A stretch of DNA of 64,000 nt from an uncultured Bdellovibrionales bacterium (GCA_965366815.1 CBDUGV010000001.1:10916-74915), one strand, 5' to 3'; shown: positions 1,806 through 53,420, numbered from the stretch's first letter. Notes: generated by a model from the letters alone, not told the origin. Numbers and translations: made by a program.

Positions 1806-1832
1806 AATTTTGGAGCTGAGGTACTGCGTTCG

Positions 1833-14242: not shown

Positions 14243-14251
14243 CTATTTGAT

Positions 14252-15655: not shown

Positions 15656-15675
15656 GAGCTTACGCCTAACGAGAA

Positions 15676-15769
15676 TGGCGGAGACGTATGGGAATCGAAC
15701 CCACCCAGGACCCTAAAGCCCTACAACGGTTTTGAAGACCGAGAGCACCACCAGGCACCAAACGCCTCC
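15676..15769 (-). tRNA. selC: tRNA-Sec (anticodon UCA)
   Basis: Reverse complement reads GGAGGCGT...CTTCAAA (U33, UCA, A37)...long variable stem-loop...GGGTTCGATTCC T-loop...ACGTCTCC-G-CCA. 8-bp acceptor stem and about 94 nt length, typical of bacterial tRNA-Sec. Genomically encoded CCA. Confidence 0.8.
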
Positions 15770-21093: not shown

Positions 21094-22917
21094 TTGCGTT
21101 TTTCGAGCGGAACACGAATTGCAGAGCGCTATGAAGTAGTAAAATTGCTCGGGAGCGGGACCGTTGGAACAGTCGTGCATGTACTCGATCGAAGCCTCGA
21201 TCAACAATCGCTCGCCTTAAAGATTCTACACGCTGATTTGATAGGGAACGATACTATCTTACAAAGGTTCCAAAGTGAGGTGATGTTCGCTCGTCAGCTC
21301 GCGCACCCGCACATCGTGCGAGTCTACGATTTTGAGCAGAAAGACAACTATTACTTCCTTTCCATGGAGTATGTGGTGGGCTGTGACCTCGATGTAATCA
21401 TCCGAAGTTATCAAAGCCGCAAATTGCCGCTCCAGGAGGCGCTCTTCTTGCTCAGTCAAATTGCCGAAGGGCTTAGTTTTGCGCATCAGAAAAACATCGT
21501 TCATCGAGATCTCAAACCGCACAATATCTTGATCGATAGCACGGGCTTAGCAAAGCTCACAGATTTCGGACTCGCTCACAGTCTTGAGTCCTCGCTCGGG
21601 CTCACTCGTACGGGACAAATGCCAGGTACGCCCCTCTACATGGCTCCGGAACAGTTTCTCGGTGCACCTCCAACCCCAAAGGTCGATATATACGCCTTTG
21701 GAATACTCGCCTTTGAACTCCTTACCGGCAGCCCCCCTTTTGTAAGCGAGAATTTCATCGCTATCGGTGAACAGCACAGGAGCGAGCCACTGCCAATTGA
21801 GCTGCTGCGACAGAATGCAGTTCCGGATTGGCTTGAGCAGCTGATTGTTGATTGCACCAAGAAAGATCCGGCGGACCGCGTGCAATCGATGAGGCATGTG
21901 TTAGGCAGGCTCAGTGACCGAGCCACTATCGACGTTGGACAAAGCAAGACGATATTGCGGACGGTGGTTCGGCGGCGCCAGCGCAGCTACAATTTGCTGA
22001 GTACAAGAAACTTGAAAGTATTGCGGCTTGGCTGGTGCTTGTTTGTGCTCTCCCTCTTCTGCCAACTCACCCTTTTCGAAAAGAATGCGAATCTTCGATT
22101 GGCATCGTACCTATATCAAATTGAACAGCAGCTCGGATACGATATGTCCATTCTCCGCAAGGGCATCGGTTTTGGGAAATTTTCCATAGGATCGGATGCA
22201 GATCTCTTCGCTGCTGCACAGTTTGGAATTTTTGAAGAACTGGAGGCCCTCATTCGAGCTGGTATGAACCCGAACATCAGAGACAAAGAAGGCAATACCT
22301 TACTCCACCACGCAGCTCGACTCCCCGCTAGAGTTCCGCAATATCTAATCAGCGATGAGGGCGTGGCCGATCCGAATCTGCAGAACAAAAACGGAGAGAC
22401 ACCACTGCTCGTTGCAGTAAAGGCTGGAAACAAACGAATCGTTGATGAGTTTCTAATGAACAATGCGTCTCCTACGATAGCGGATAAAGAGGGCAACACC
22501 CCTTTGCTTTGGGCAGTGTCTGTTGGCGATTTGGCAATTGTAGAATCGCTCGTCAAACCGATGATGAGATATCGACCGCTGAGAGGAACCAAAATATACA
22601 CACCTACACAAAGAACCAGAGAGGGGCTTACTGCGCTACACCTCGCTGTTGAAGCCGGTCGAGTCGCAATTCTCAAAATTTTGATCAACGAATTCGCTGA
22701 TGTGAATGAAAGAGATTCTCAGGGTCAAACTGCGATCATGCGGCTTGTGCAACAAGCACCTACGGACAATACCATTCAAACACTCGAATTGCTTTTGCAG
22801 CACAATGCCAGTCTAAGTGCGCGAGATGATGAGGGGCTCACTGCATTTCAGTATGCCGATGCCAATTCAAACCAATATTGGGCCGATAGATTGCGCCAAC
22901 ACCGAGCAGATTCCTGA
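21094..22917 (+). CDS. Ser/Thr protein kinase with predicted TM helix and C-terminal ankyrin repeats
   Basis: Hanks motifs LGSGTVGTV, HRDLKPHNILID, DFGLA, APE. Hydrophobic segment LGWCLFVLSLFCQLTLF. At least 5 ankyrin repeats (GNTLLHHAARL, GETPLLVAVKAGN, GNTPLLWAVSVGD, GLTALHLAVEAG...). TTG start. Confidence 0.85.
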   Translation: MRFSSGTRIAERYEVVKLLGSGTVGTVVHVLDRSLDQQSLALKILHADLIGNDTILQRFQSEVMFARQLAHPHIVRVYDFEQKDNYYFLSMEYVVGCDLDVIIRSYQSRKLPLQEALFLLSQIAEGLSFAHQKNIVHRDLKPHNILIDSTGLAKLTDFGLAHSLESSLGLTRTGQMPGTPLYMAPEQFLGAPPTPKVDIYAFGILAFELLTGSPPFVSENFIAIGEQHRSEPLPIELLRQNAVPDWLEQLIVDCTKKDPADRVQSMRHVLGRLSDRATIDVGQSKTILRTVVRRRQRSYNLLSTRNLKVLRLGWCLFVLSLFCQLTLFEKNANLRLASYLYQIEQQLGYDMSILRKGIGFGKFSIGSDADLFAAAQFGIFEELEALIRAGMNPNIRDKEGNTLLHHAARLPARVPQYLISDEGVADPNLQNKNGETPLLVAVKAGNKRIVDEFLMNNASPTIADKEGNTPLLWAVSVGDLAIVESLVKPMMRYRPLRGTKIYTPTQRTREGLTALHLAVEAGRVAILKILINEFADVNERDSQGQTAIMRLVQQAPTDNTIQTLELLLQHNASLSARDDEGLTAFQYADANSNQYWADRLRQHRADS

Positions 22918-22925
22918 GCGAGCTA

Positions 22926-24671
22926 ATGGAAGGAGCATACCAACAGTTTCTCAAACCAAATACGCTCCTCGACGGGAGGTATCAACTGGTCTCTGCCTTG
23001 GGCTCTGGAGCAACGGGAACTGTGTTTCTCGCAGAGGATCAGAATCTCAACTCCGAAGCGCTCGCAATAAAGATTCTTCACCCGCACTTGTTGCTGAGTG
23101 ACGAGAGCTACAGTCGATTCCGTGCGGAAACGCGAATCACCATGCGCTTGTCTCACCCCAATATACTCACTTGTTTCGGAATGGGACAGCACGGCAATCA
23201 GATCAGTTTCTTAAAAATGGAGTACTGTGATGGAACTTCCTTGGCTGATTTGATCGATAGGAAACCTCAGCATCGAAAGCTAACAGAGCTCATTTGCATC
23301 CTACGAGATATCGCTTCAGCGTTAGAGTATGCACATTTGCAAGGAGTAATTCACCGAGATTTGAAGCCGGAAAATATTCTGATCGGCGAAGATAGAGAAG
23401 TGCGAGTCGCGGACTTCGGTATTGCTCAGATAGTCCGGCAAGAGGCGCGTTTGACGGGCCAGGGCGATATACTTGGAACTCCTTATTATATGTCACCAGA
23501 GCAGTTGCGCTCGGAACTCATTGACGGCAGGTCAGACATGTACTCGTTTGGCATCATGGCCTACGAGGTTATTACCGGACAACTGCCCTTTACTGCCGAT
23601 TCCTTCTGGGAACTTGCCGAATTACATATCTCGGCCCCATTGCCAGTTGAGCCTCTAGAAAGGGTGCATACCCCGCCCTGGTTAATCGACTTAGTAGCCG
23701 GCTGCGTGGAAAAGGATCGTCACAAGCGTTTGAACTCCATGTCGGAAATCTACAATATTCTAGAACAACACTGTCCCCTCGAGCAGAGCCCGGATCGGGA
23801 TCGAAAGCGAAGCCCTAGTTTTTTAGAGCAGCCAAGCCAGGAAGAGAGTTCCAAATTCGTTTTTACTTTTCAGAAAAATTACGATCGAGTGGTGAGGTAC
23901 GCCTTTTCCGTTTTCATCCTATTGGTTTTATTTCTGGCACCTCGCATCAACAGCTCGGTCGATTGGCGCTACAATATCGTAGCGTTTCGAATAGAGCGGA
24001 TTTTCGGAGTGAAGCTGCCATGGGTTCGAAAACTGATGCACGTACCTGCCCACATTTCCTATCCGGAAAGCATGTTTGGATCTGGACCCGAGTTTAAGCA
24101 CGAAACGCTATCTCTCTTAAAAGCCGGATACGAAGTCAATGTCTACAGTGAATCACGCGGTGAATACCCGATTCATTATGTAGTGTACAGGTTCGCAGAT
24201 TGTCAGATAGTACGGTATCTCGTCGAATACGGCGCTCTGGTAAACGTAAGCAATCGAGCCGGGCAAACTCCCCTCTTCATCGCTGTTTTGAGGGGTGAAC
24301 CCGAAACCGTTGAATTCTTGCTCTCAGAAAAAGCCGACCCGAATATCGCGACACTAGAAGGATTAGTCCCCCTCAGCCAGGCCGCAAAGAGTTCTCGGTA
24401 CGATATTGCTCGCAGTCTGCTAGAGCAAAGTCGAGTTCCAATAGACGTGAATCGAGCGGATCTTCAGAATCAAACTCCACTCCACTTTGCAGTGCCAAGC
24501 GGCCACCGAAAACTGGTCGAGTTGCTTTTAACGCACGGAGCAGACCCTACCTTGGTCAACGATGATGGCGATAGTCCACTGACCCTGGCGAAGAGCCTTC
24601 AGCCGAGAAAACGCTATGCCGCAGTAATTGAACTATTGGAGAAACAGAGTGTACCGGAAGACGCTCGGTAG
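22926..24671 (+). CDS. Ser/Thr protein kinase with predicted TM helix and C-terminal ankyrin repeats (paralog)
   Basis: HRDLKPENILIG, DFGIA, SPEQ. Hydrophobic FSVFILLVLFLAP. Ankyrin repeats (GQTPLFIAVLRGE, NQTPLHFAVPSGH...). 8 bp after the previous kinase gene. Confidence 0.85.
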   Translation: MEGAYQQFLKPNTLLDGRYQLVSALGSGATGTVFLAEDQNLNSEALAIKILHPHLLLSDESYSRFRAETRITMRLSHPNILTCFGMGQHGNQISFLKMEYCDGTSLADLIDRKPQHRKLTELICILRDIASALEYAHLQGVIHRDLKPENILIGEDREVRVADFGIAQIVRQEARLTGQGDILGTPYYMSPEQLRSELIDGRSDMYSFGIMAYEVITGQLPFTADSFWELAELHISAPLPVEPLERVHTPPWLIDLVAGCVEKDRHKRLNSMSEIYNILEQHCPLEQSPDRDRKRSPSFLEQPSQEESSKFVFTFQKNYDRVVRYAFSVFILLVLFLAPRINSSVDWRYNIVAFRIERIFGVKLPWVRKLMHVPAHISYPESMFGSGPEFKHETLSLLKAGYEVNVYSESRGEYPIHYVVYRFADCQIVRYLVEYGALVNVSNRAGQTPLFIAVLRGEPETVEFLLSEKADPNIATLEGLVPLSQAAKSSRYDIARSLLEQSRVPIDVNRADLQNQTPLHFAVPSGHRKLVELLLTHGADPTLVNDDGDSPLTLAKSLQPRKRYAAVIELLEKQSVPEDAR

Positions 24672-27855: not shown

Positions 27856-30800
27856 TCAGCGAATCCCTAGCGCTCTAAGCCAAAAGGCCGGAGCATCCGA
27901 GGTGCGACAGCGTTCTGCTTTTGCTGAGTCACTGAGCTCTGCCAGCTCTTTTTGTTCCGCCTCGAACTTTCCTCCCTCGCGAAGACTGAGTAAGAGATAG
28001 TGCTTTGCCCTCGTACAGGCAACGTAGAATACCCGGCGTTCTTCGCTGTAGTACATCGCTTGTTGGTTCTCTTCGAGCAACTGCATAGTCAGCGTTTTCT
28101 TTCGGCGGTAGTCATCCGTCGGATCTTCGATCCTTACTCCAAGCATGCTGCGCCCGGAGCCATCGGGGATTTCTGATTTGATGAAATCGTGCTCCCTTCG
28201 CTGGCGACCGGCAAGAAAGGGAAGTACCACCATCGGATACTCCAAGCCCTTTGACCCGTGAATGGTGCTTAACACAATCGGATGAGAGACACTATTTGCC
28301 GTTGGCGCATCCGAACCAGCAACGCGCTCGTTGATCAGCCAATTCAGGGCATCCTGTGGATTTACACCACATTCGTTCTTTCTCTCCGCCGATGCGAGTC
28401 GGTCAATAAAGCGCTCAATATTGCCAAATGCTTCACCCTTCCCCACTGCAACATATGCTTCCCGCAATCCGGAGGTCCTCGCAATATGCTCAAGTAAGTT
28501 GGAACATGGAACCATGCGACTCAAGCGCTGCCAATCGGCCAATCTCCCTTGGACAAAGCTTAGAAGCTCGCTCGGTGAAGTGTGTTCACCTTCGAGAGTA
28601 ATCCAAGCCCCGTTTAACTCGGCGTAGAGGTCTACAATGTGCCGATCGCTGAGGCCCATTAAAGGAGAGCGCAAAACTCCAACTAAGGCAATCGCATCGT
28701 CGGGGTGAACGAGGAGTCGCAACACATGCTCGAGCTGGGCAATCTCCGCTAGTTCATAGAAGCCACTACTGTGCGAAATACTAAACTCCAGTTTCTCCGC
28801 CTCCAGAGCATTCGCAACTCGCGAAAGCTGCCGCACAGTCCGAGTAAGAACTGCAATTTGCGGAGAACCACTGTGGAGCGAAAGCTCCGGGTACTGTGAA
28901 GAGCGACCATCTGTATCGAAAGAAGACAACAGCTGCTTGAGGTGCGCAGCGAGGAATTTCGCTTCACCCGTATCGCTATTTTCTTGGCGACCAGCCCCCT
29001 TTTCGTAAGGTTTCCACAACTGTTGAACCTTCGGCTCACCTGCAGTATTCACTGGTGTTTTCGCGTGCATCTGCTGGGCCCGAAGCGCAGTTGGAGAGAG
29101 CGCTTTTGGAACCTTGCACGCTTCGTCTGTAGCAAAATCTACCGCAAAAAGCTTCTCAAACAAGTCGTTCACGAAATCGACGATCTCAGGCTGCGAACGG
29201 TAATTATCGTCCAGGCTCAGCGAAATTCCGCCAACCCGCTCAAGCTGCTCTCGAGCCAAGTCAAACACTCGGCTATCCCCGCCGCGAAAACCGTAGATCG
29301 ACTGCTGGGCATCGCCGACGAGAAAGAGTGTATCTGCCGCGAGCTCCGTGCCGCAGAGGCCAGCGATCTTCGATAGAAGCTCCCATTGCTGGCGATCGGT
29401 ATCCTGAAACTCATCGACCATGATGTGATGAAATTGCTGCTGGAGGCGTTGGCAAACTGCTGCCTGCCGGGCTCGATACCGGGGCTCCACCTCTTGGCAC
29501 AGCATCCGATGGGCCCCAGAAATCAGATCGTCGAAATCTACTAGCTGTTTGCCGGCCTTAAGCCGCTGGTAGCGTTGGCGCACCATAGCTGCAAGCTGCG
29601 CAACACCTTGGACGAGCTGCCAAGCCTGTCGCTCTGCTACATCTGAAAGCGTGAATACTGCGCGCTGCTCCTGTAATGTCCCGAGTGTATCTCGTACATC
29701 GTTCATAAAATTGCGAGGCGTGTGCTTACTTTTACGCTTCGCAAATCCTTGATTCTCCTGAATATAAAGCCGAAGCGATGCTATCTGCGAGAGCCAGTCG
29801 GTATCGTCGGCTTTCAGTAGCTTCTCAACTTCCGCCTCGAGGTATCGATGTGCAGCCAGCTGATCTGCTGGCATCTCCCCACCCTTCCCCGCCAACCATT
29901 CTGCAAGGTCTTGAAGCCAAAGGGCGAAGTATGCAGCGTGCTCTTGTTGGAGTTCGCCGCGTTTTCGCTTTTGATACTCGGAGACTAGCTCAGTTAGGTA
30001 GCTGCGTTTAGACTCATCGAGTACCTCATTGAGATCGTCTAGGAGTTGTGGACTCAAGGCAAGCCGTGCGAGTTGTTGTTGCAACGTTCGGGCATGCACG
30101 CCGAAATCCAATACGCGCTCGGCAGTTTCGCGCCCATCTTCTGAACGCACCACTGCTCTCACCGCTGCGCCAAGTTGAGTCTGCTGCTCGCTAGAGGTAA
30201 GAATTCGATTAAAGTGCTCGAGTCCGGAAAGCCGTAAATCCATTGCAACAATCCTCGTGGCCAACCCGTGGATTGTGCTTATCTGGGCCTGGGAAACAGC
30301 GGCTTTTGCCTGAGTAAACCGACCTCGCTCAACATCGCTCAGCACCGATCCCCGATAGCTATTGCTTGCAAGGACCCCGCTCAAGGCCTGCTCAACTCGT
30401 TGGCGAATCTCCTCGGCTGCCTTTTCGGTAAAAGTGACGGCCAACAAGGACTCAATTGACTCGCCGCGGTGAATCAGCTCAAGCACGCGGGCTCGCAGCA
30501 CTGCGGTTTTCCCTGAACCAGCACCAGCGCTAAGACATATCGGCTGCTCCAATCGACATGCCGCTTGCTGCTCCGCTGAGAGCCGAAGCTCACGAGAAGA
30601 ATGCTGGTTCTGAAGAAAGTCCCTCGGCACAAGAGATCCAGCACGGATTTCAGCCAAAGGCTCCTTGCTAGTCGCTTCTTCGCTGGTCGCTTCTTCTCTG
30701 GATTTCCACTTCTTTTCAAGCAGCACTTCATCACGGCAATGAAGCGCTGCATGCTGCGAATAGCGATCGATATCGGCCTCAAGCGGCTGCAGGAACGAGC

Positions 30801-33800
30801 CTTCGGCCAGCATCCAAAGAAGCGATCGCACATGGGCCAGAGTTTGTTCTACGCGACGCTCAACCGCCTCGCTCGAAAATGAACTTCCCCGTGCCTCAAG
30901 TGCTAAAAGCTCCCGACAGACTCCTTTTCGCGGCGATGGCATATCGAGATCGCTGCGGTTGGGCTGCGACAAATCTATGATCCCCCCTCTCGCGGGCAGT
31001 GTCTCAAAGCATTGGCGTAGGGCAGCTGCATAGAGAGGCAACTGCAAGCTCTTTTGCGAATCTATATCTCGCAAAGTAGCTGCCCCCCCGGTCTTATAGT
31101 CCCATATCGCCAGGGGCGTACCGCTGCCTTGATCTACGACAATGTGCCGATCGATACGGTCAATGCATCCAGTCACTTCAAGGCTAAGCCCAATGTCAGC
31201 CTCTGGCTGAACGAGCAACGCTGGTGCATCTTCGCTGAGCCCAAATCGGTATTCGACCCGTTCTGGAACAGTTTGGAGAAAGTCGCGCTGGTAAATCAGG
31301 GCGGCAAACAACGGCCCTTGTCTCCCCTGAACTGCCGATGGTCGCTTGTTCGACTGCAGACCCGCTAAGAGCCAATTCTTTCGGCTGCGGAGCAAGGGGT
31401 GAGAATCCCAATCGAGAGGATGATCGGCAAACGCAGCCATGGCTATTGCGATCATCCTCTTGCAGGCCTGCTCGAGGTCTCCTTGCAAGGACTCGGGCGA
31501 AAAGCCTTGGCCTGGATCAAAGAATCGCTCAAGGCAGCGATGGACAATCGTTCCAACATACAGAGGTATCTCCGACTCAAAGCCGCTGGAGCGTGGTTGG
31601 AGACCTAAGAGTTCTTGGAATAAAAACTGGAGGGGATTCTCGGAAAGCAATTCTAGCGATGAAACAGAAAGCCGAAGCGAAAGAGCTCCCTCTTGCTGTT
31701 CTAGCCCGGCATTCTTCGCCCTAATTCGACAGAGCCGCATCGAACTTTCAGGCCCTAATTGGCCGTCATATTCGGTAAAATGGGGCGAAAGGCGTCCGCG
31801 CAGTAGCGCCAGGGCCCGCGGACAGGGTTCTACCGGAGCAAGACTTCCATCAGTGGCGATCACCTCGCTATCCGCATCTGCGAGTAACCTGAGTTCATTT
31901 CTTGCGAGCTGATCTGGAAATAATGAGGCGAGATCCGTGAGAAAGGTCATCGGTAAGACCTCATTCTGCTCATCGCGATCTGGCACGCTAAAGACGAGCT
32001 CTTTCGCATTCCGGCATAGCTGCGCTAGGAGCCAATGACTCTCTTGGACGCGGGAGACAGCCCGACCCCGTCTATTCAACTGGTTGGTCACCACATCGAG
32101 CTCGCCATTCTCCGGGGCTGAGCCGCCTTGGATCCAAGCGTTGAGTTCGCGGGCACTGCATCCCAAAAGTACAACCGCAGGGCTAAAGATCGTCCGCCCA
32201 TCGAGAAACTCAGTTAGGCGCACCGCATCGGGCTGGAAATCTACCTGCAGCTGAATCCGATCAACATACTCTAGAAGATGGCTGACAAAACGAGCTAAAC
32301 TCACCCGTTCGAAATCAGCAGCGGCATAGCGAAAGACCTGTTGCACTTGGCGTGTTGCTCGAACCAGTTGCTGGAGGGGCGCTTGCGGATTTGAGGAAGA
32401 GCTACGCAAAGTCGATAGACGAAGGCGTATTCGATTGTAGTACTGCCGAATAGCAGCAGCATACTGCGGTGCCGTTTCATTTGCTGACTGTAATTTCGCG
32501 GCATACTCAGCTTCCTGCTCGAAAATCGCCAAACTAGCTATACCGCTGAGCAGAAGCTCTACTTCTCGGCGAACAGAGTCTCGCAGCTCGCGGCCGCCAC
32601 GAGTTTCTTGATATGAACGCGGACTGTCGCAGCAGTACCGCAATCGACCGACCAATTGCTGGAGCAGATGCTCGCTCCCAGCGCTTTCTTCCGATGGAAG
32701 GAGTTCGAGCGCGACTATGCCCTGCTCTATACAAGAAAATAACGGTCGAACGCCGGCAACCTGGGCTACTAAGAAGTCCTCAACACTGCGATTTCCTCGC
32801 TGTTTCTGTAGCTGCGGATGCTCGAGTATCGGATGAACTACCTCACGATGCCGCTTTAAGAAGCGCTTGGTCGACGCAGTAGCAAGCTTTGGCGAAGCAG
32901 CAAACGGGTGGCTAAAAAGAGCCTCGGCGCTCGCAAGATTCTGCTCTTGGAGCCAAGAAATCAGTTTTCGAAGGAAATCAGCCGGTAGCGTGCCAGCTAA
33001 GGCGGTGCCCTTGGTAATTTGCAACGGGATATTGAGACGATCAAACTCAGCTTCCATTAAGGAGCGATATGGTTCAACGTCAAACGCCAAGATGTGATAC
33101 TCAGCTGGTTGCGCCCTGCCTGCGGTTCGAGCTGCGGCTATCGCCTCAGCCAAGCGGCGGGCTTCGTCACGGCGCTCAGCAGAACGCCAAATAGCAACGC
33201 CGTCCAAGGACGCCCCCAGGTCAGTTTCCCCCAATAGCTTAGAGTCGATCAATTGATCGACAAGCAGGGCTCGATCGGGAACGGTACTGGGGTGTTGCTC
33301 GACTGCCGCGATTTTAGCGCTTGAAGTGCTAAGGAAATACCGCAGCGATTGGAGATAGGCTTCCGAAGGCTTTGGAAATTGTACGCTATCGCTCGCAGTG
33401 CTTTGATCGACTTTTTGCGATCCCCTCGCTGGTTCTGCCTCAAAAAGTGATGTTTGAACCGCTGTGGATGAAGAGCTGCGATTGGCTGTTTCAGTGGTCT
33501 TCGTATCAGAATTTCTCGTATGATCACGATACTCGTTTTGGCAAACGACTGCATCGACAGAGACTCGGAACTCGCAAAGATGAGAGAGTCTATCATAGAC
33601 ACTTTGCTCTAGCGGAAACACCTGCATTGGCCGAAACAAGAGTATGGTGTCTACGTCAATCGTCTCTACACGGTTGAGCGCGACGAGCAACTGTTCGAGC
33701 ACGGCTGGCCCATCGTAGGCGCCGACGAACGATTGTACTTCCTGATAGGCAGCTATCAGCGAAATGAGTTCTTCTCGACGGTCGAGAATAACATTGCCGT

Positions 33801-34188
33801 GCTCATCAATTGCACTTCGAATCAGCTGATCTTCGGTCTGGTGGAGGCGAACCGAATCGAGAAACCGCAAAAGCCGGTCTATCTCCTTCGGAATGCCGTG
33901 AATGGCGCTCGATAGCTCCTGACGAAGCAAGGGGAACTGGCTCTGCTCAGTAATGAGCCGCCACAGCGCAGTTCTTCGAGCCGGATGATGCAGGCGTCTG
34001 ACGGACTGCTCGGGTCTAAGCTCTCGTAGCAAACGCACTGCGGCATCAGCAGTCGTTAAGACAGTAGGCTCTAGCCCAGCATTTCGACGAAGCGATTCAA
34101 CTACGAATCGAGTCTCGCATAAAATCCAGGAATCGGAGGAAAGACTCTCAAACAGCTTCATCACTCCGCGACTAAAATTCTTCGGCAA
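27856..34188 (-). CDS. 2110-aa fused AddB-like (RecB-family PD-(D/E)xK nuclease) + AddA/UvrD-like SF1 helicase
   Basis: RecB nuclease motifs GCIDRIDRH...DYKTGG...QLPLY at about aa 1000. Then UvrD motifs: AGAGSGKT (I), TFTEKAAEE (Ia), VDEFQDTD (II), GDAQQSIYGFRG (III), YRSQ (IV), IHGSKGLE (V), VACTRAK (VI). No second nuclease domain at the C-terminus. Confidence 0.8.
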   Translation of the reverse strand: MPKNFSRGVMKLFESLSSDSWILCETRFVVESLRRNAGLEPTVLTTADAAVRLLRELRPEQSVRRLHHPARRTALWRLITEQSQFPLLRQELSSAIHGIPKEIDRLLRFLDSVRLHQTEDQLIRSAIDEHGNVILDRREELISLIAAYQEVQSFVGAYDGPAVLEQLLVALNRVETIDVDTILLFRPMQVFPLEQSVYDRLSHLCEFRVSVDAVVCQNEYRDHTRNSDTKTTETANRSSSSTAVQTSLFEAEPARGSQKVDQSTASDSVQFPKPSEAYLQSLRYFLSTSSAKIAAVEQHPSTVPDRALLVDQLIDSKLLGETDLGASLDGVAIWRSAERRDEARRLAEAIAAARTAGRAQPAEYHILAFDVEPYRSLMEAEFDRLNIPLQITKGTALAGTLPADFLRKLISWLQEQNLASAEALFSHPFAASPKLATASTKRFLKRHREVVHPILEHPQLQKQRGNRSVEDFLVAQVAGVRPLFSCIEQGIVALELLPSEESAGSEHLLQQLVGRLRYCCDSPRSYQETRGGRELRDSVRREVELLLSGIASLAIFEQEAEYAAKLQSANETAPQYAAAIRQYYNRIRLRLSTLRSSSSNPQAPLQQLVRATRQVQQVFRYAAADFERVSLARFVSHLLEYVDRIQLQVDFQPDAVRLTEFLDGRTIFSPAVVLLGCSARELNAWIQGGSAPENGELDVVTNQLNRRGRAVSRVQESHWLLAQLCRNAKELVFSVPDRDEQNEVLPMTFLTDLASLFPDQLARNELRLLADADSEVIATDGSLAPVEPCPRALALLRGRLSPHFTEYDGQLGPESSMRLCRIRAKNAGLEQQEGALSLRLSVSSLELLSENPLQFLFQELLGLQPRSSGFESEIPLYVGTIVHRCLERFFDPGQGFSPESLQGDLEQACKRMIAIAMAAFADHPLDWDSHPLLRSRKNWLLAGLQSNKRPSAVQGRQGPLFAALIYQRDFLQTVPERVEYRFGLSEDAPALLVQPEADIGLSLEVTGCIDRIDRHIVVDQGSGTPLAIWDYKTGGAATLRDIDSQKSLQLPLYAAALRQCFETLPARGGIIDLSQPNRSDLDMPSPRKGVCRELLALEARGSSFSSEAVERRVEQTLAHVRSLLWMLAEGSFLQPLEADIDRYSQHAALHCRDEVLLEKKWKSREEATSEEATSKEPLAEIRAGSLVPRDFLQNQHSSRELRLSAEQQAACRLEQPICLSAGAGSGKTAVLRARVLELIHRGESIESLLAVTFTEKAAEEIRQRVEQALSGVLASNSYRGSVLSDVERGRFTQAKAAVSQAQISTIHGLATRIVAMDLRLSGLEHFNRILTSSEQQTQLGAAVRAVVRSEDGRETAERVLDFGVHARTLQQQLARLALSPQLLDDLNEVLDESKRSYLTELVSEYQKRKRGELQQEHAAYFALWLQDLAEWLAGKGGEMPADQLAAHRYLEAEVEKLLKADDTDWLSQIASLRLYIQENQGFAKRKSKHTPRNFMNDVRDTLGTLQEQRAVFTLSDVAERQAWQLVQGVAQLAAMVRQRYQRLKAGKQLVDFDDLISGAHRMLCQEVEPRYRARQAAVCQRLQQQFHHIMVDEFQDTDRQQWELLSKIAGLCGTELAADTLFLVGDAQQSIYGFRGGDSRVFDLAREQLERVGGISLSLDDNYRSQPEIVDFVNDLFEKLFAVDFATDEACKVPKALSPTALRAQQMHAKTPVNTAGEPKVQQLWKPYEKGAGRQENSDTGEAKFLAAHLKQLLSSFDTDGRSSQYPELSLHSGSPQIAVLTRTVRQLSRVANALEAEKLEFSISHSSGFYELAEIAQLEHVLRLLVHPDDAIALVGVLRSPLMGLSDRHIVDLYAELNGAWITLEGEHTSPSELLSFVQGRLADWQRLSRMVPCSNLLEHIARTSGLREAYVAVGKGEAFGNIERFIDRLASAERKNECGVNPQDALNWLINERVAGSDAPTANSVSHPIVLSTIHGSKGLEYPMVVLPFLAGRQRREHDFIKSEIPDGSGRSMLGVRIEDPTDDYRRKKTLTMQLLEENQQAMYYSEERRVFYVACTRAKHYLLLSLREGGKFEAEQKELAELSDSAKAERCRTSDAPAFWLRALGIR

Positions 34189-35136: not shown

Positions 35137-35619
35137 TTGCTAGAATGCCATCCAAACCACATCTGCCTTATGCTTCTTTGCCTCGAAAGTAACATCGATG
35201 ACCTAAATCCAGAGCTCTACCCCTACATAATCCGCCGTATACTCGAGGCTGGGGCAAAAGATGCCTGGCTCACCCCGATAATAATGAAACATGGCCGGCC
35301 GGCGGTAACACTCTCTGTTTTGCTAGACTCCAGCTTGTTAGAGCCGGTATCGGACCTGGTTTTCTCTGAGACAAGCACCTTTGGAATTCGTTGGTACGAA
35401 GTTGCGCGAAAAGAGCTGGCACGCTCTATCGCCCGTGTCAGTACTCCCCATGGTGAGGTTGCGGTAAAGATAGCCCTCGACGCTGATGGCCGAGAATTAC
35501 ATGCGGCCCCGGAGTTTCAGGACTGCCAGAGCATAGCTGAAAACAGCTCTACTTCACTAAAATCGGTATATAGGGAGGCCCTAATAGCCTACGAAAAGCA
35601 CAAAAACACTATGAAATAA
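35137..35619 (+). CDS. LarC C-terminal domain (DUF111) stand-alone fragment
   Basis: LESNIDDLNPELYPYIIRRILEAGAKDAWLTPIIMKHGRPAVTLSVL matches the LarC ...LETNIDD...GALDV..TPI.MKKGRPG..LSVL region. No upstream N-terminal half and no other lar genes in the window. Confidence 0.45.
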   Translation: MLECHPNHICLMLLCLESNIDDLNPELYPYIIRRILEAGAKDAWLTPIIMKHGRPAVTLSVLLDSSLLEPVSDLVFSETSTFGIRWYEVARKELARSIARVSTPHGEVAVKIALDADGRELHAAPEFQDCQSIAENSSTSLKSVYREALIAYEKHKNTMK

Positions 35620-37293: not shown

Positions 37294-38190
37294 CTATTTC
37301 TGGCGATCGAGGACGAACTGAATCATCCAGTGGAGGAAGTCTGCCGATCTGCCAAATGGAGCTAGACTGGCCTCTGCTTTCCGGGAGACTTCAGTTGCGA
37401 GCTTTTGCGCCTCAGCCAATCCGAAAACTGAAACATAGGTTGGCGTACCCTGGCGGGCGTCAGCGCCCACTTCTTTCCCCAGTTGCTCGCTACTCGACGT
37501 CGCGTCTAGCAAGTCGTCAGTAATCTGAAATAACAGTCCTAAGTGGGTGCCATAATCGTAGAGCAATCTAGTCGGCTCCTGCGCATCCTCCTTTGGTAGG
37601 AACTGTACCGCTGAGAGTACCGCTGCCCTGATGAGTGCTGCGGTTTTGCGATCGTGTCTGCTGACCAACTCCTCCCCCAGTAAGCTTTTTTGCCCGGAAA
37701 AAGCGGCTTTTTTCGCCGTTGCCTGTAAATCGAGCAGCTGCCCGTCGCATACAGCCGCTGTCGCTTGAGCAAGGAGTACGGCCTGGCGATTTCGCACAAC
37801 TGGGTCAACCGATTCTGCAGCCGCCAAAACCTCAAAGGCAGCAGCAAAGAGCCTATCTCCCACTAAAATGGCTGTTGCTTCGTCGAATTTCTTGTGACAG
37901 CTCGGCTGACCACGCCGCAAATCGTCGTCGTCCATTGCCGGGAGATCGTCATGCACCAAGGTCGAGGCGTGAATTAGTTCAATTGCTACTGCAAATGCTT
38001 CTTGCTGGGAATGCGGGATGCCGAGTAACTCGCCTGCGCTCAGCGATAACACGGCACGAACGCATTTGCCTCCAGAGAGTACCGCATATCTCGATGCTGC
38101 CTCTAGCTCAGTGTCACTGAACAGCTCATCGGCGTATGCATCGAGGGACAGCAATGCCGAATCGCGTAACTCATTGTATTTATTGAGCAA
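37294..38190 (-). CDS. (E)-isoprenyl diphosphate synthase (FPP/GGPP synthase family)
   Basis: First DDxxD in LVHDDLPAMDDDDLRRG, second in FQITDDLLD. 298 aa. Confidence 0.85.
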   Translation of the reverse strand: MLNKYNELRDSALLSLDAYADELFSDTELEAASRYAVLSGGKCVRAVLSLSAGELLGIPHSQQEAFAVAIELIHASTLVHDDLPAMDDDDLRRGQPSCHKKFDEATAILVGDRLFAAAFEVLAAAESVDPVVRNRQAVLLAQATAAVCDGQLLDLQATAKKAAFSGQKSLLGEELVSRHDRKTAALIRAAVLSAVQFLPKEDAQEPTRLLYDYGTHLGLLFQITDDLLDATSSSEQLGKEVGADARQGTPTYVSVFGLAEAQKLATEVSRKAEASLAPFGRSADFLHWMIQFVLDRQK

Positions 38191-38250: not shown

Positions 38251-39135
38251 CTATCTCGTGGTTAGGCGCTCGTATAACTCAGTGAGATCTTCGTCACTGT
38301 AGAATTCGAGGGTCAGGCGACCAGCAGCCTTATTCCCAGCCTTTCGCACAAGATGAACCTTGGTTCCAAGCGCCTTCTGGAGATCTCCGACGATTCTTTG
38401 ATCTTCAACGCTGAGCTTCTTTGCGGGTGATTTCCTAGCTGTACCACCGTGGGACACCACCTCTAATTGGGACGCACCGCTGATGATGTCCTCCAATTGA
38501 GACCTAGTGATATCTGCCAGCTGGGGAATGATTTTCTTGCGTTCTGCTTTATCCTCGAGCTGTGCGAGTAACAGCACCTTGCTTTCAGAAGCACCAGCAA
38601 TCAAAGCAGCCTGCAGATCGTCGGGTAAAGACAGCACATCGAGACTGCGCTGAACCACTGACTTAGAGATACCCAGCTTCTTAGAAATATCGCGAATGCT
38701 CAAACTGAACTTTTCTCGCAGATGCCCTATCGCTAGAGCCCGTTCCATCGGAGCCAGATTCTCTCGTTGGATGTTCTCTACAAGCTGCTTACCGAGGACA
38801 GTCGCATCATCTCCTACTTCCGAATCGATGATCGCGGGAATTGTCGACAGACCAAGAGCTCGGGACGCTCTCAACCTTCGCTCACCGGCGATAAGGCGAT
38901 AGGTCCCACCAGGAGTGACCTGAACGAGCACTGGGCTGAGTACACCGTATTCTTTAATAGAATTGGCAAGTTCAGCTAAGGACTCATCGCTAAATACTCG
39001 CCGGGGCTGATCCGGGTCTACATCGATGTCTACGACTGAAAGATAACGAAACGGACTTCCAGACCGAGCCCGTTCCGCCAAGCTAGGGCCACCAAACAAA
39101 GGGTTGTTATCCAGAGTTACAGGCTTACGACTCAT
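38251..39135 (-). CDS. parB: ParB/Spo0J partition protein
   Basis: ParB box GERRLRASRALGL, HTH region; 294 aa. Overlaps parA stop. Confidence 0.85.
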   Translation of the reverse strand: MSRKPVTLDNNPLFGGPSLAERARSGSPFRYLSVVDIDVDPDQPRRVFSDESLAELANSIKEYGVLSPVLVQVTPGGTYRLIAGERRLRASRALGLSTIPAIIDSEVGDDATVLGKQLVENIQRENLAPMERALAIGHLREKFSLSIRDISKKLGISKSVVQRSLDVLSLPDDLQAALIAGASESKVLLLAQLEDKAERKKIIPQLADITRSQLEDIISGASQLEVVSHGGTARKSPAKKLSVEDQRIVGDLQKALGTKVHLVRKAGNKAAGRLTLEFYSDEDLTELYERLTTR

Positions 39136-39892
39136 TATTCAGCACCTCATCAGCTAGCTTCCGATAGTCTTCAGCTCCCGGACTACGAGTATCGTATTTA
39201 AAAATAGAAGTGCCGCGTGCGGGTGCTTCTGCTAAGGCCACGTTCGTCCGTATTATTGTATCGAACACTAAATCCCCAAAGTATTCCCGAACTGTGTCGG
39301 CAACGGTTTTAGAGAGTCGACGGCGGGCGTCGTGGAGGCAAAGCAACACTCCCCCAACTTCTAAGCTGGGGTTATAGGCTGTTCTCACTTGGTCGATGGT
39401 GTCGAGAAGTTGTCGCACTCCGTGCAAAGCCAGAAACTCACTTTGCACCGGAACAATAACCTTGGACGCAGCGACCAAGCCGTTTAAAGATAGGAGGCCA
39501 AGAGATGGTGGGCAGTCCACCATTATATAGTCGAACTTATCCTGGACATCCGCCAGCGCTTGCCGAAGTAGTAGCTCTCGACCAATCACTCCACCAAGGT
39601 CTAAGTCGGCCGCACTGAGCAATAGACTAGCTGGGGCAAGAAAGAGATTCTCGTCTATCGTAACAATGATGTCCTCTATCTTACTCCCGTGTCGAAGGAC
39701 ATCATACATGCTGCCCTCACTACCGTCGTCGTCGGCAGAGTATCCGAGGTGGGCGGAGAGATTAGCCTGGGCATCGATATCAACGGCCAACACTCGCTTC
39801 CCTCGCTCGGCAAGCCCGGCGGCGAGATTCGCTGTGGTCGTAGTCTTACCAACGCCACCCTTCTGATTTACAATTGCATACGTACTTTGCAC
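39125..39892 (-). CDS. parA: ParA/Soj partition ATPase
   Basis: Deviant Walker A AIVNQKGGVGKTTT; 255 aa. Confidence 0.9.
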   Translation of the reverse strand: MQSTYAIVNQKGGVGKTTTTANLAAGLAERGKRVLAVDIDAQANLSAHLGYSADDDGSEGSMYDVLRHGSKIEDIIVTIDENLFLAPASLLLSAADLDLGGVIGRELLLRQALADVQDKFDYIMVDCPPSLGLLSLNGLVAASKVIVPVQSEFLALHGVRQLLDTIDQVRTAYNPSLEVGGVLLCLHDARRRLSKTVADTVREYFGDLVFDTIIRTNVALAEAPARGTSIFKYDTRSPGAEDYRKLADEVLNNES

Positions 39893-40197
39893 TGGAGGGT
39901 CACCATATAGAATTCTGGCTTGATAGGGTTCCGAGTCTTATGTCGGTACACGTGCTCTGACATAAGTAAACCAGCATACCGCAATTATCAAGGATTGAGC
40001 GCGAAGCTTTGGATTTTGGGAAAATCTAAGAAAATTGGTGGCTTGTACGACTTACTCCCAGGCCCGATAGAGGGGATGAAAGCTCTCTCAATCATCGATC
40101 TTAGCTTGGAAACACCCCCTACCCCGCGATCGCAAACCCGATTTTAATTAATCTTTTTAACTACTTAGCCAAATTCCTGGCTTAGTACCGAACGCGC

Positions 40198-40466
40198 CTC
40201 GTGTATTCAACTAAGTACATTTCCAAAAAAAGCTCGTGTATTGAAGTAAGGCTCGTGCTTTCGACTAAGTATTTTGCAAAAAAATCTTATCCACAGCTCA
40301 TGTCGAATACACTATCGAGCTTTCAACCCAAGTCCATCGTGTTTTGGACCAAAGAATCTCGCTTTCGAACTATAGTTCTATCGAGTTTTGGGCTAAGTCA
40401 TATCGTGTTTCGAACCCAAGTAGTATCGTGTTTCAGCCGAAGGATCCTCGTGTTTCGAAATAAAAA
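40198..40466. repeat. iteron array: about 11 direct copies of a 13-bp core (A/C)TCGTGTTTCGAAC spaced about 21-23 bp
   Basis: Copies begin near 40198, 40233, 40252, 40294 (weak), 40315, 40336, 40358, 40379, 40402, 40425, 40447. Flanked by AT-rich DNA, between divergent parAB and the RepA-like gene. Confidence 0.7.
40287..40295 (+). promoter_or_regulatory. consensus DnaA box TTATCCACA within the iteron region
   Basis: Exact 9-mer match to the DnaA box consensus. A single copy, as typical for iteron-plasmid origins. Confidence 0.5.
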
Positions 40467-40647
40467 TGCGCAGGTAAGGCTCTAGAATTACTTACTTATT
40501 TCCGGCTGTACTACAGTACTTAGATCAAAAAAGTACCTTGTAAAAACTAACAGTACTCTGTTAGGTATCCCAACATAACTTAAAGCAACTTAAAGTTGTT
40601 GTTGAATGATTTTGATTTAGAAAAAAGAAGCCCGATAGAAGCAGGAT

Positions 40648-42054
40648 ATGAACTTACCTCAGTTTGCAGAGGACAGCAGTATTTCTGAAGATCATCAGAG
40701 TTCCGAGAGTCGAAAGGCCAGGGGTCGTGATGGGGGATCGAATCAGAGCGCCAGTGTTGCATGGTCACGAGATGAGATGAATCTGGCGGAATTCCCGCTA
40801 GCGGTGCTCTCCACTCGAGTGAATCACAACATTAAGACGCTTGAGTTCACTGATACGCATAGAGCCCCTTCTGGTGAGCTAGTAGAGCGCCGCTGGATAA
40901 TCACCGGTGCTGACAAATTTGGACTTCCAACTTCGACTGACGACGACGTCGTGCTCGGATTGATGCGGCTCTCTATGTCCAAGGGATTTCGCGAGCGAAA
41001 AGTCTACTTTACTCGCTATGAATTGCTCAAGACACTGCGATGGAGCACTGAAGGGCGGAGTTATCAGCGACTGATCAAGTCGCTCGATCGTCTCAGCGGA
41101 GTGCGAATTCGTTCATCGAACTCGTTTTACGACAATTCCTCAAAGGCCTATCAGACCTGCAACTTTGGTATCATCGATGCTTATGAAATCAACGATGGTC
41201 GAAAGCATCCAGGCGGGGAAGGGGAGTTACCGAAGTCCTACTTCATTTGGAGCGAGCGAATTTTTGACTCCTTTAAGGCGGGCTACATCAAGAAGCTCAA
41301 TCTCGATCTCTATTTTCAACTAAATAGCGCAGTTGCACGGCGGCTCTACCGCTATCTCGACAAGCATTTTTACTATAAATCCAGTATCGAGCGTGTGTTA
41401 ATGCCATTTGCCTTCGAGAAAGTCGGGCTTTCTCGAAGCTATAAGTACGTCTCTAGTATTAAGCAGCAGCTCGAACCGGGTCTGGAAGAGCTCAAGAATG
41501 TCGGCTTTTTGCGAGGGTATGAATTCACGGGTCGTGGGAGTGCCGCGAAGATTCGCTTTTTCGCCGGGAATGGGAATGGGGCAGCTGCCGCGACCAGTAC
41601 GGGCAGTAGTGTTGCGCCAACTCCTGGACCAACACCACAGCCAGCTCAGCAGGTGGACGCCGCTTTGACTCCCGCTGCCTCCAGAGAGCAGAGTTTTGGT
41701 AATATTGCATCAGCTCGTAATCGCTTTGTAACTGGAGAGCATGCGACGAGCCATCCCTTGGTCCAGAAACTCGTTGAACGAGGTATGGCGTCACCACAAG
41801 CACATCGCTTGATAGCGAAGCAACCTACTGCACGCTATTCGCAAATCGAAAGAATTATTTGCTACTACGATCATCTCGTAGCCCAGCAGGACTACAAAGT
41901 ATCGAAAAACAAAGTTGGATTTCTCTACCGGGCAGTAGAGCGCTCTGATGAGTTTGTCCTACCAAAGGAGTTTTCGGGAGATGTCGCGACTCCGCGAAAA
42001 CGGTCGAATCGCCCTGAATTGAAGTTATTTAAGTCGAGTCGCCGAGGGGAGTAG
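40648..42054 (+). CDS. putative plasmid-type replication initiator (RepA-like)
   Basis: Immediately downstream of the iteron array and divergent from parAB. N-terminal domain with NLAEFPLAVLS, Pro/Thr-rich linker, basic C-terminal domain. Family not verified. Confidence 0.45.
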   Translation: MNLPQFAEDSSISEDHQSSESRKARGRDGGSNQSASVAWSRDEMNLAEFPLAVLSTRVNHNIKTLEFTDTHRAPSGELVERRWIITGADKFGLPTSTDDDVVLGLMRLSMSKGFRERKVYFTRYELLKTLRWSTEGRSYQRLIKSLDRLSGVRIRSSNSFYDNSSKAYQTCNFGIIDAYEINDGRKHPGGEGELPKSYFIWSERIFDSFKAGYIKKLNLDLYFQLNSAVARRLYRYLDKHFYYKSSIERVLMPFAFEKVGLSRSYKYVSSIKQQLEPGLEELKNVGFLRGYEFTGRGSAAKIRFFAGNGNGAAAATSTGSSVAPTPGPTPQPAQQVDAALTPAASREQSFGNIASARNRFVTGEHATSHPLVQKLVERGMASPQAHRLIAKQPTARYSQIERIICYYDHLVAQQDYKVSKNKVGFLYRAVERSDEFVLPKEFSGDVATPRKRSNRPELKLFKSSRRGE

Positions 42055-52379: not shown

Positions 52380-52625
52380 TTCCGGCTCAAATTGCCTAGG
52401 GATTATTGCTAGTTATTTAGAGTACTTAGCCCCTACCTGTACGCCAATCCCCTAAACCTGACAAGTATGGTTGACAAAAAGGCGTAAATTCACTACTCAT
52501 TTGCTGAGGATTGAAGCATAACTATGAAGAATCAAGACTATAGAATATCCAAGTGCTCAATAATGAACGAAGTGGTGGTGGAAATGCGTGGTGTGTCTCG
52601 GCACTTTATACTCGGCAAACGCTTG

Positions 52626-53420
52626 ATGCGTAGTGCAGCTTTTATTTGCCTATTTTTCTGTGGGTTGTTGGTTGGAGTCCTGTTCGGACTAACTTCAACA
52701 GCGAATGCAGTCACATTGGATAATGCAGGACAGGTGCGAGATGGCGTAAGTGTCGCCAGCCTCCTAGGCACGAGCTACGATGGCCCGGACTTCGATGCAT
52801 TCAAACCATTCCAAGGCTTTTCTGGCTCAGATATTCTCTCCTTAAGTTCGTTCACCGGACAAGCGAACGGTTCTCAACTTTCAGCAATTCTTCTTTCGGA
52901 AGCAGCGTGTTTCGACGGTAGAAACCCGAACTTGGCGAACAACTTTGGTGTCGTCGATGCTGCAGGAAATTTTATGTCGATTCTCGATACTGCAAATGTA
53001 GACCCAGGTGGAACGGGACTGATTGCCCAGGGTGCTGACGACGAGTTTACCTTTGCTTTGCAGAGCCCTGAAGCCTTGTTTAGTGCTGATGATAAGGCCA
53101 ATGCTGATGGCCGCGCCCATTTGATAGCGATGCAGGTCGATAAAGATACTACTATTACAATTGACCGACCGACGACTCGAGGCACCCCAGCAGTTAGCTT
53201 CGAGCTCTTTGCCGGCGATATCATTATTTTCATCGAAGATATGCTTGCCAGTGGCAATACCACGACAAGTCTAGTTCCTGGTCTTGGTGACTTTGATTAC
53301 AACGATATGGTCGTCGTAGTTCGCCAAACTGAAGTTCCCGAACCAAGCACATTGGCCTTGATGGGAATGGCGCTGTTGGGCCTCGGCAAGAAGCGACGAC
53401 GACGCAGTTTGCCAAGCTAA
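52626..53420 (+). CDS. PEP-CTERM sorting-signal protein (exosortase substrate)
   Basis: C-terminus VPEPSTLALMGMALLGLGKKRRRRSLPS (PEP motif + TM + basic tail). Signal peptide from M at 52626; upstream in-frame ATGs at 52524/52563/52584 are possible. Confidence 0.75.
   Translation: MRSAAFICLFFCGLLVGVLFGLTSTANAVTLDNAGQVRDGVSVASLLGTSYDGPDFDAFKPFQGFSGSDILSLSSFTGQANGSQLSAILLSEAACFDGRNPNLANNFGVVDAAGNFMSILDTANVDPGGTGLIAQGADDEFTFALQSPEALFSADDKANADGRAHLIAMQVDKDTTITIDRPTTRGTPAVSFELFAGDIIIFIEDMLASGNTTTSLVPGLGDFDYNDMVVVVRQTEVPEPSTLALMGMALLGLGKKRRRRSLPS

Follow-up and report, generated by a model that had tools for sequence, protein, structure and literature searches.

Iteron-driven secondary chromosomes are understood almost wholly from Vibrio, and iteron chromids have been listed mainly in beta- and gammaproteobacteria (PMC6090056). 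Here we describe a locus in a 64,000-nucleotide stretch of DNA from an uncultured Bdellovibrionales bacterium (GCA_965366815.1 CBDUGV010000001.1:10916-74915; the whole stretch is called the window, and positions are counted from its first letter). In this locus the partition genes parA and parB are divergent from repA, a gene for a RepA-type replication initiator, and phased direct repeats (iterons) and an AT-rich region lie between them. The layout is like that of ori2 of Vibrio cholerae (parB2-parA2/iterons/rctB), where parAB and the initiator gene likewise diverge around phased direct repeats and an AT-rich region, and like Vibrio chromosome 2 (Chr2) the replicon is lineage-wide, Mb-scale and carries essential genes. 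With moderate confidence, we regard the locus as the working origin and partition module of a chromosome-sized, vertically inherited essential replicon, most likely a domesticated chromid of the Vibrio Chr2 kind. Such a chromid most likely goes back to one event at the base of the clade, in which an RPA-type plasmid replicon was captured. The replicon is either the first known secondary chromosome of the phylum or a main chromosome that is not started by DnaA.

The resemblance to Vibrio does not extend to the sequences. RctB and the present RepA, which belongs to the RPA family (PF10134), show no sequence similarity; the repeats are 22 bp long here but 11/12-mers with GATC in ori2, and the locus has a small Soj-type ParA and no conserved DnaA box. 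The same initiator family is found on RPA plasmids such as pOJF2_1, pBTK445 of Tetrathiobacter kashmirensis and the Deinococcus/Thermus megaplasmids, and plasmid records of Deinococcus in PLSDB encode RPA-type initiators. RPA plasmids have iteron-like repeats and low GC beside the rep gene, RPA is the main initiator family of planctomycete plasmids, where it adjoins putative iteron origins, and the function of the family has been traced to a plasmid named pBTK45 (bioRxiv 10.1101/2024.01.22.576637). Those plasmids are, however, 20-700 kb in size and dispensable or accessory, with another par type and arrangement (a planctomycete plasmid that we inspected had a different par arrangement), whereas the present module has a fixed place among housekeeping genes, and its replicon measures at least 1.87 Mb. 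The repeats in the cis elements of chromosome II and the megaplasmid of Deinococcus radiodurans have been reported to interact with DnaA and ParB; here the repeats abut the rep gene, are phased at two helical turns and are not accompanied by a conserved DnaA box. The classical iteron plasmids (F RepE, pPS10 RepA, P1 RepA/incA, R6K pi) share with the locus bipartite iterons of about 19-22 bp, and direct arrays together with an inverted pair, which suggest a logic of monomers on iterons and dimers on an operator. In contrast to these plasmids, the inverted pair here lies on the parA promoter and not on the rep promoter, iteron-like sites occur within the coding sequences of par and adjacent genes, a conserved DnaA box is missing, and the replicon is two to three orders of magnitude larger.

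The module and its closest neighbour consist of the following features.

37294-38190, minus strand: ispA, a polyprenyl synthase gene, identified by tblastn synteny with parB in genome and metagenome loci; its ortholog in the relative L001 matches PF00348.
38251-39135, minus strand: parB, with ParB_N, HTH_ParB and weak ParB_C (Pfam) matches and TIGR00180 (NCBIfam).
39125-39892, minus strand: parA, encoding a 255-amino-acid small Soj-type Walker ATPase (AAA_31, E=7e-56, and CbiA; Pfam).
39936-39967, on no particular strand: inverted pair of iteron-like half-sites with a common central CACGTG (CTTATGTCGGTACACGTGCTCTGACATAAG), found by repeat search and by weight-matrix hits on both strands.
40196-40270, plus strand: iteron cluster A, with A-tract spacers between its three direct copies (40196, 40231, 40250) and scores of 16-20.
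40287-40295, plus strand: TTATCCACA, a consensus DnaA-box 9-mer between the iteron clusters and the sole perfect copy in the window.
40312-40465, plus strand: iteron cluster B, seven tandem copies at 22-23-bp spacing (40312, 40334, about 40356 (degenerate), 40378, 40400, 40423, 40445).
40466-40647, plus strand: AT-rich region of 28-38% GC, a candidate unwinding element and repA promoter/leader.
40648-42054, plus strand: repA, encoding a 468-amino-acid protein of the RPA family (PF10134, E=2e-18, 67 bits against a cut-off of 27).

The parB and parA genes form one operon that is transcribed away from the 755-bp spacer at 39893-40647. The original prediction, made from the sequence of the window, had described parA and parB on the minus strand facing a repeat region and then a RepA-like gene, and every element was found where it had been placed. 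It had also taken the whole for a basic replicon of the iteron type with a partition module among housekeeping genes; the 22-bp iterons, the PF10134 initiator and parAB bear this out, and dxs, asnS, selAB/selC, galU, panB and the FPP/GGPP synthase (ispA) were all confirmed as neighbours.

The 468-amino-acid protein, for which homology to an initiator family had been expected, is a RepA-type initiator by its sequence family and predicted fold. In addition to PF10134 it gave a weak match to TrfA in Pfam; a search of NCBIfam returned no matching model. Its N-terminal tandem winged-helix core, at about residues 41-306, is followed by a linker of low complexity and by a conserved helical domain at the C-terminus (about residues 370-445). 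An AlphaFold2 model had a mean pLDDT of only 65.9, but the region of the second winged helix (WH2) scored above 85 and the C-terminal domain above 90. When the model was compared with the PDB by Foldseek, the best match was to domains 2-3 of RctB (E=1.3e-4, probability 1.0), which has a tandem winged-helix core as well, followed by RepE54 of plasmid F (E about 0.01-0.03, probability 0.99-1.0). A sequence search of the PDB with a RepA profile gave no match.

More than 900 homologs of RepA were found in the protein database. The best 120 were 46-67% identical over about 90% of the length, and those among them that carry a name all came from metagenome-assembled genomes (MAGs) of Bdellovibrionota, Bdellovibrionales or Oligoflexia. 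The N-terminal 260 residues are near-invariant, for example in SRDEMNLAEFPL, GADKFGLPT.TDDDV and RRLYRYLDKHFY, and about 100 positions of the core are invariant across 26 sequences. The C-terminal domain (window 41746-41982) is made up of five helices with an invariant GFLYRAV; a fold search of this domain against the PDB gave nothing significant, the best match being a DnaD domain at E=3.4. The RepA of the window stops just past an RPELKLF motif and is without the C-terminal extension of about 90 residues (…VE.KM..LK.VL…EA..GCVR.EL…) that most homologs have. As the next gene begins 5 bp past the stop codon, this looks like a natural truncation. Among plasmid-borne relatives, those of Isosphaeraceae (Planctomycetota) were closest at 31-38% identity, followed by Rubrobacter, Deinococcus and Thermus replicons, with the Deinococcus-Thermus proteins at about 29%.

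For a comparison of the locus across relatives, one genome per GTDB species was scanned. This matched 186 Bdellovibrionota species, with 80 loci listed and upstream sequence for 75 of them, and 156 stretches were matched in a JGI metagenome set. All 80 listed loci are from uncultured bacteria, on contigs of up to 1,866,914 bp (JAXLVP010000002.1, 1.87 Mb). The parA and parB genes lay directly upstream of repA and divergent from it in 75 of 75 genome loci with upstream sequence, and the order ispA<-parB<-parA<-iterons->repA, with ispA beyond parB, was found in most of the 75. In-clade JGI contigs (RepA at least 45% identical) had the same ispA-parB-parA-spacer-repA arrangement. Left-flank synteny held down to 46% RepA identity, and on the 1.87-Mb contig it reached the addA-like gene, galU and a sigma-54 regulator, as in the window. 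In relatives a FolC-like Mur ligase gene is found between parB and ispA, and IDH is also beside the module.

The iterons were scored with a weight matrix for which only relatives, and not the window, supplied sites; these were anchored on TCG[TA]G and taken from the homologous spacers. The matrix found nine strong and one degenerate direct repeat of 22 bp in the spacer, all on the plus strand; the 21-nt frames of the strong copies start at 40196, 40231, 40250, 40312, 40334, 40378, 40400, 40423 and 40445, and the degenerate copy at about 40356. The predicted number of about 11 phased repeats was thus close, although slightly too high. At a score of at least 12 the 64-kb window had ten hits in total, of which nine were inside the spacer; generic repeat finders detected only fragments of the array. 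Each unit is asymmetric and has two parts, a TCGTG block and, at a distance of one helical turn, a (G)AAATAAG-like block (GAAATAAG). A spacing of 22 bp corresponds to two helical turns, so that the iterons would all be on one face of the DNA. A monomeric initiator of the RepE/pPS10 type, with two winged helices (WH1 and WH2), would contact such bipartite sites.

The array is conserved throughout the clade. ATCGTG was 15-fold enriched in the spacers of 73 relatives (4.46 per kb versus 0.29 per kb in the flanks), and successive TCGTG cores were most often 22 bp apart (132 cases), the second most frequent distance being 23 bp (28 cases). Four or more direct copies were present in 60 of 73 loci. 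The JGI loci, which had not been used for the matrix, gave 5.3 hits per kb in the 900 bp upstream of repA compared to 0.21 per kb elsewhere. By contrast, there were zero hits in loci with an outgroup RepA (at most 45% identical), showing that the motif occurs together with this clade of RepA, and just as much with the accompanying ParB.

Downstream of the array, the GC content at 40500-40650 falls to 28-35% compared to about 50% in the window. This AT-rich region holds a GTAC-rich block (about 40508-40556) and a tandem 10-mer, ACTTAAAGCA/ACTTAAAGTT (40577-40595); the GTAC block and (A/G)ACTTAAAGTTAGTTAAAGTAA are common to near relatives and the window (40500-40600). Its composition and position are consistent with an unwinding element and promoter, and a promoter/terminator scan of the spacer was at background level. 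A second conserved non-coding element was observed in a group of loci (L024-L083) at 40-300 bp upstream of repA, between the iterons and the gene. Here a 20-mer, GATTGTTTAACTAACTAAAA, is mismatch-free in about 30 distant loci and is preceded by CCGCTCAC and a palindrome of the TAACATGTTA type. This element could be an unwinding element, a promoter, a methylation target or the missing parS.

The original prediction had also included a perfect DnaA box in the origin. Such a box is present once, at 40287-40295, but it did not hold up as a conserved part of the origin. About 0.5 perfect 9-mers are expected by chance per 64 kb, and among the 75 homologous spacers the perfect box was present in two and absent in 73, a frequency that rests on those two cases. 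One-mismatch boxes in these spacers occurred at about the chance rate (16 observed versus about 10 expected), and we found no cluster of DnaA boxes in the window or in the homologous spacers. The box was therefore rejected as a part of the origin and is probably fortuitous, given its lack of conservation and chance-level count. Searches by tblastn gave no match to dnaA or dnaN in the window or in about 150-160 loci with 10-kb flanks (the queries were E. coli/B. subtilis DnaA and E. coli DnaN). Likewise, gidA/mnmG, rpmH, gyrB, recA, dnaB and rpsL had no tblastn match within 10 kb at any locus, and a regular-expression search found no rRNA within 10 kb of any locus.

These results raise the alternative that the locus is the origin of the clade's only, primary chromosome, in which a plasmid-derived RepA/iteron/ParAB system displaced DnaA-oriC and canonical parS, which have since been lost or become irrelevant to initiation. 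That no DnaA box is conserved among 75 origins fits this alternative, as do a contig that spans at least 1.87 Mb and has the locus at a distance of 0.58 Mb from an end, the housekeeping genes conserved beside parB (ispA, the FolC-like ligase, galU and the addA-like gene) in a window that is dense in essential genes, and a RepA core as conserved as an essential protein. In addition, we found no reports of chromids for Bdellovibrionota, and the literature searched contained no description of the present system or of a loss of dnaA in this phylum. On the other hand, two nearly universal systems would have to be lost, and dnaN, gyrB, gidA and rpmH, which are usually close to the origin, are not nearby. 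Furthermore, cyanobacteria are the only free-living bacteria reported to lack dnaA or dependence on DnaA (PMC7198777). The cyanobacterial case would be the relevant comparison if this alternative were true, but there the skew is irregular, origins are multiple or undefined and no initiator has been identified, whereas here a defined origin, a candidate initiator and a regular skew switch are found. We consider a primary chromosome possible but rather unlikely.

The partition proteins were examined for what they say about the type of replicon. The domain make-up of ParA and ParB (N-terminal, helix-turn-helix (HTH) and C-terminal dimerisation domains) fits the chromosomal Soj/Spo0J type. Over its full length, ParA shares 49% identity with B. 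subtilis Soj; its identity is 35% to the ParA of a planctomycete RPA plasmid and 56-79% to clade orthologs. The identity to Soj also speaks for a primary chromosome, but the type of ParA was dropped as a discriminator between chromosome and plasmid because genuine plasmids score 46-48% identity, the same as chromosomal Soj. ParB is more divergent, with 32.5% identity to B. subtilis Spo0J and a best identity of about 36% to any ParB in PLSDB. The canonical ParB recognition helix is SRxxVANxLRLL; the helix read off the present sequence is SKSVVQRSLDVL, which is non-canonical.

Canonical parS (TGTTNCACGTGAAACA) was not found in the window, where a single site with three mismatches is at chance level, or in 1.37 Mb around the loci of relatives, which gave a single site with two mismatches. 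A de novo search for parS, based on shared perfect 14/16-bp palindromes and on near-palindromes repeated within a locus, returned nothing convincing, the exceptions being the iteron-derived CACGTG and a single AGATAACATGTTATCT in some relatives. If the replicon is the primary chromosome, the lack of canonical parS may mean that this is the only partition system of the cell. A different ParB helix and the absence of canonical parS also point to a distinct parS specificity, which is what a secondary replicon needs.

The inverted pair at 39936-39967 sits 45-75 bp upstream of parA and about 700 bp away from repA. The palindrome upstream of parA is common to near relatives and perfect in two of them (L006 and L023), while in distant relatives a single iteron is located at the ribosome-binding site of parA, with a second copy in inverse orientation about 55 bp away. 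Judged by its sequence and position, the pair is a candidate operator of the parAB promoter for RepA dimers.

Iteron-like sites were also observed outside the spacer. In the window there is one such site.

52970-52990, minus strand: isolated iteron GTATCGAGAATCGACATAAAA, with a score of 22 the best in the window, inside the open reading frame (ORF) of a PEP-CTERM protein at 52524-53420.

This site is 12.3 kb to the right of the origin, and shuffled sequences gave 0.025 hits at a score of at least 18 outside the origin; it may belong to the RepA system. Some relatives have isolated or paired iterons 5-10 kb to the right, and L060 and L066 share a pair 426 bp apart. On the left of the origin, iteron-like sites were about 70-fold enriched in relatives (L030 at 6387-7596 and the same region in about 50 other loci), with 107 hits at -3 to -1.5 kb of the parA start compared to 8 on the entire right side. 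The left-side sites occur in both orientations and within coding sequence, in the FolC-like Mur-ligase gene, at the stop codon of parB and at one constant site within parA, that of the LxCLHD codons. The genome of the window is without this second iteron cluster, as its parB-ispA gap is just 60 bp. Extra clusters and remote single iterons are known from classical iteron plasmids, for example P1 incA and the R6K alpha/beta origins. In Vibrio ori2, further initiator sites are found outside the minimal origin (PMC6090056).

The position of these sites could also suggest that the 22-bp repeats are the centromere of ParB, with RepA acting at another conserved element by its gene, an alternative that is compatible with any type of replicon. 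The motif is enriched in and downstream of parA and parB, in both orientations and in coding sequence, which is parS-like; no other parS candidate was found, and the second, very conserved element lies between the repeats and repA, where RepA could act. However, the sites are asymmetric and bipartite (TCGTG and GAAATAAG one turn apart) and are arranged head-to-tail at exactly two turns by an AT-rich region and rep. Such arrays are the signature of monomeric winged-helix initiators, whereas a dimeric HTH protein such as ParB binds palindromes. The motif is also absent with outgroup-type RepA. A ParB centromere is on these grounds an unlikely explanation of the repeats.

GC skew was then compared on the two sides of the locus. 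In the window the skew was -0.052 over 5.0-39.9 kb and +0.026 to +0.036 to the right of the locus, and the sign changed both in the window and in relatives, in agreement with the polarity switch that had been proposed as a check near 40 kb. In relatives, the flank at -10 to -4 kb was negative in 50 of 50 loci and the flank at +2.5 to +10 kb was positive in 80% of 56. The difference between left and right flanks gave a Mann-Whitney p=4e-18, which overstates independence because the loci are phylogenetically related, although the pattern is nonetheless uniform. A right-flank skew of +0.03 to +0.04 persisted at 5-10 kb, where coding strands are balanced, and the switch is therefore not merely an effect of gene orientation. 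Together with the universal synteny, the skew switch indicates a long-active origin and not a recently integrated plasmid.

An integrated plasmid, as a recent or passive insertion, had been one of the options in the original prediction, and it is contradicted by the synteny in every relative and by the skew. The broader form of this explanation is that the chromosome contains an inserted plasmid or integrative element whose replicon is silent or active only now and then. The nearest kin of RepA outside the clade are indeed plasmid initiators, at 31-38% identity, and toxin-antitoxin genes are found near the locus in one relative. But the position and left-flank synteny are identical in every relative, the sign of the skew switches at the locus clade-wide, and the iterons and RepA are strongly conserved. 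No integrase or transfer genes were found in the Pfam-annotated flanks (att sites were not searched for), and the GC content matches the surroundings with the AT-rich spacer as the sole exception. Neither the patchy distribution nor the integrase, transfer genes or GC island of an integrated plasmid or integrative and conjugative element was thus seen. A dnaA-dnaN pair with a canonical oriC on the contig had been named as favouring an integrated element; the window holds no dnaA-dnaN. We consider an inserted element largely refuted, with next to no probability left. A search of viral contigs found no relative of the locus.

A further set of JGI loci (L133-L168), with a RepA 31-45% identical to that of the window, represents an RPA outgroup without the ParB/ispA synteny and without the iteron motif. 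Some of these are on large contigs (L165, 182 kb; L154, 76 kb). The outgroup loci may mark the plasmid pool from which the module of the clade was captured.

The large contig and the housekeeping genes on either side of the locus would also be in line with a chromosome with two origins, in which DnaA-oriC and the RepA origin share one replicon, a state that could arise, for instance, when a chromosome and a chromid fuse. Natural chromosome fusions are known in Vibrio. Stable cases are rare in bacteria, however, the clean clade-wide skew switch favours one dominant origin, and no dnaA was found within 10 kb of the loci. We find a two-origin chromosome very improbable.

A chromid accounts for the combined results without the loss of any universal system, as a plasmid-type system would here operate beside an intact DnaA chromosome. 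The absence of dnaA, dnaN, gidA, rpmH and gyrB within 10 kb and a ParB that is divergent from Spo0J with a non-canonical helix agree with this. As is characteristic of chromids, plasmid-type replication and partition were found together with core genes (dxs, uppS, ispA, asnS, galU and panB as essential-type cargo in the window) and with conservation at the level of genus or above. The genomes would then also contain a separate, putative DnaA chromosome, as in Vibrio. The density of tRNA genes was tried as a further test of chromosome versus chromid and was uninformative (6 tRNAs in 1.1 Mb of partly syntenic flanks).

Several observations weigh against a chromid with this origin. The replicon is at least 1.87 Mb and the density of essential genes in the window is chromosome-like, and the identity of ParA to Soj is the closeness usual for a chromosomal ortholog, although some plasmids equal it. 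Iteron replicons that exist alongside DnaA usually retain a DnaA box, and none is conserved here. The cumulative skew has its minimum within about 40-46 kb and bottoms out at about 44-46 kb, lagging rather than being exactly at 40.3 kb, and the relatedness of the loci limits the statistics of the flanks. Finally, ParB accompanies the repeats just as RepA does, and the binding of RepA to the iterons is putative.

With the chromid as the preferred reading, the features of the locus suggest how it may work. RepA monomers would occupy the 9-10 iterons of 22 bp, which are in phase, and would bend or wrap the DNA there; the adjacent AT-rich region with its conserved 10-mers would melt as a result. 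The host replicative helicase would then be loaded at the melted region, probably without DnaA boxes, with the conserved helical C-terminal domain of RepA as a candidate contact for the helicase, and forks would depart both ways. The inverted pair at the parAB promoter is probably a binding site of RepA dimers, through which par expression could be tied to the level of the initiator, while ParA and ParB would segregate the replicon from a non-canonical centromere. The extra iteron-like sites may titrate or handcuff RepA, as in P1 incA or Vibrio ori2-inc.

If correct, the locus represents an independent and ancient domestication of another initiator family (RPA) in another phylum, on a replicon of at least 1.87 Mb, with hundreds of natural variants of origin, initiator and partition system open to comparison. 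Its origin departs from the textbook in that no DnaA box is conserved, an iteron palindrome lies on the parAB promoter and iteron-like sites occur in coding sequence, traits that suggest DnaA-independent helicase loading and a direct coupling of replication and segregation. Should the replicon instead prove to be the primary chromosome, it would be the first case in bacteria of a main chromosome for which a non-DnaA initiator and its origin are defined, in a free-living lineage of at least 186 species. If dnaA is lacking, the assumption that main chromosomes with a regular skew are DnaA-initiated would be overturned, with a bearing on MAG completeness markers and origin-prediction tools.

Other features of the window are as follows.

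183-4229, plus strand: genes for a halogenase-like flavoprotein, a ketosynthase, an ApeP-like dehydratase and a FabG-like reductase, resembling an aryl-polyene or lipid-type cassette.
5894-7789, minus strand: an undecaprenyl-diphosphate synthase fusion, with the synthase domain at residues 384-604 and an N-terminal region of about 380 residues without a Pfam match.
12323-15769, minus strand: selB, selA and tRNA-Sec, a complete selenocysteine set; the tRNA-Sec is the sole tRNA in 64 kb.
21094-24671, plus strand: two tandem Ser/Thr protein kinase genes, each with C-terminal ankyrin repeats.
27856-34188, minus strand: a 2110-amino-acid AddA/AddB-like fusion with a PD-(D/E)XK nuclease and a UvrD-type helicase, syntenic with the module in several relatives including the 1.87-Mb contig.
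35137-35619, plus strand: a 160-amino-acid ORF that matches the Ni_insertion (LarC-like) profile at positions 246-375 of 375 only.

The last of these is a truncated gene or a stand-alone fragment, and a homolog with 45-49% identity was found in L019 and L054.

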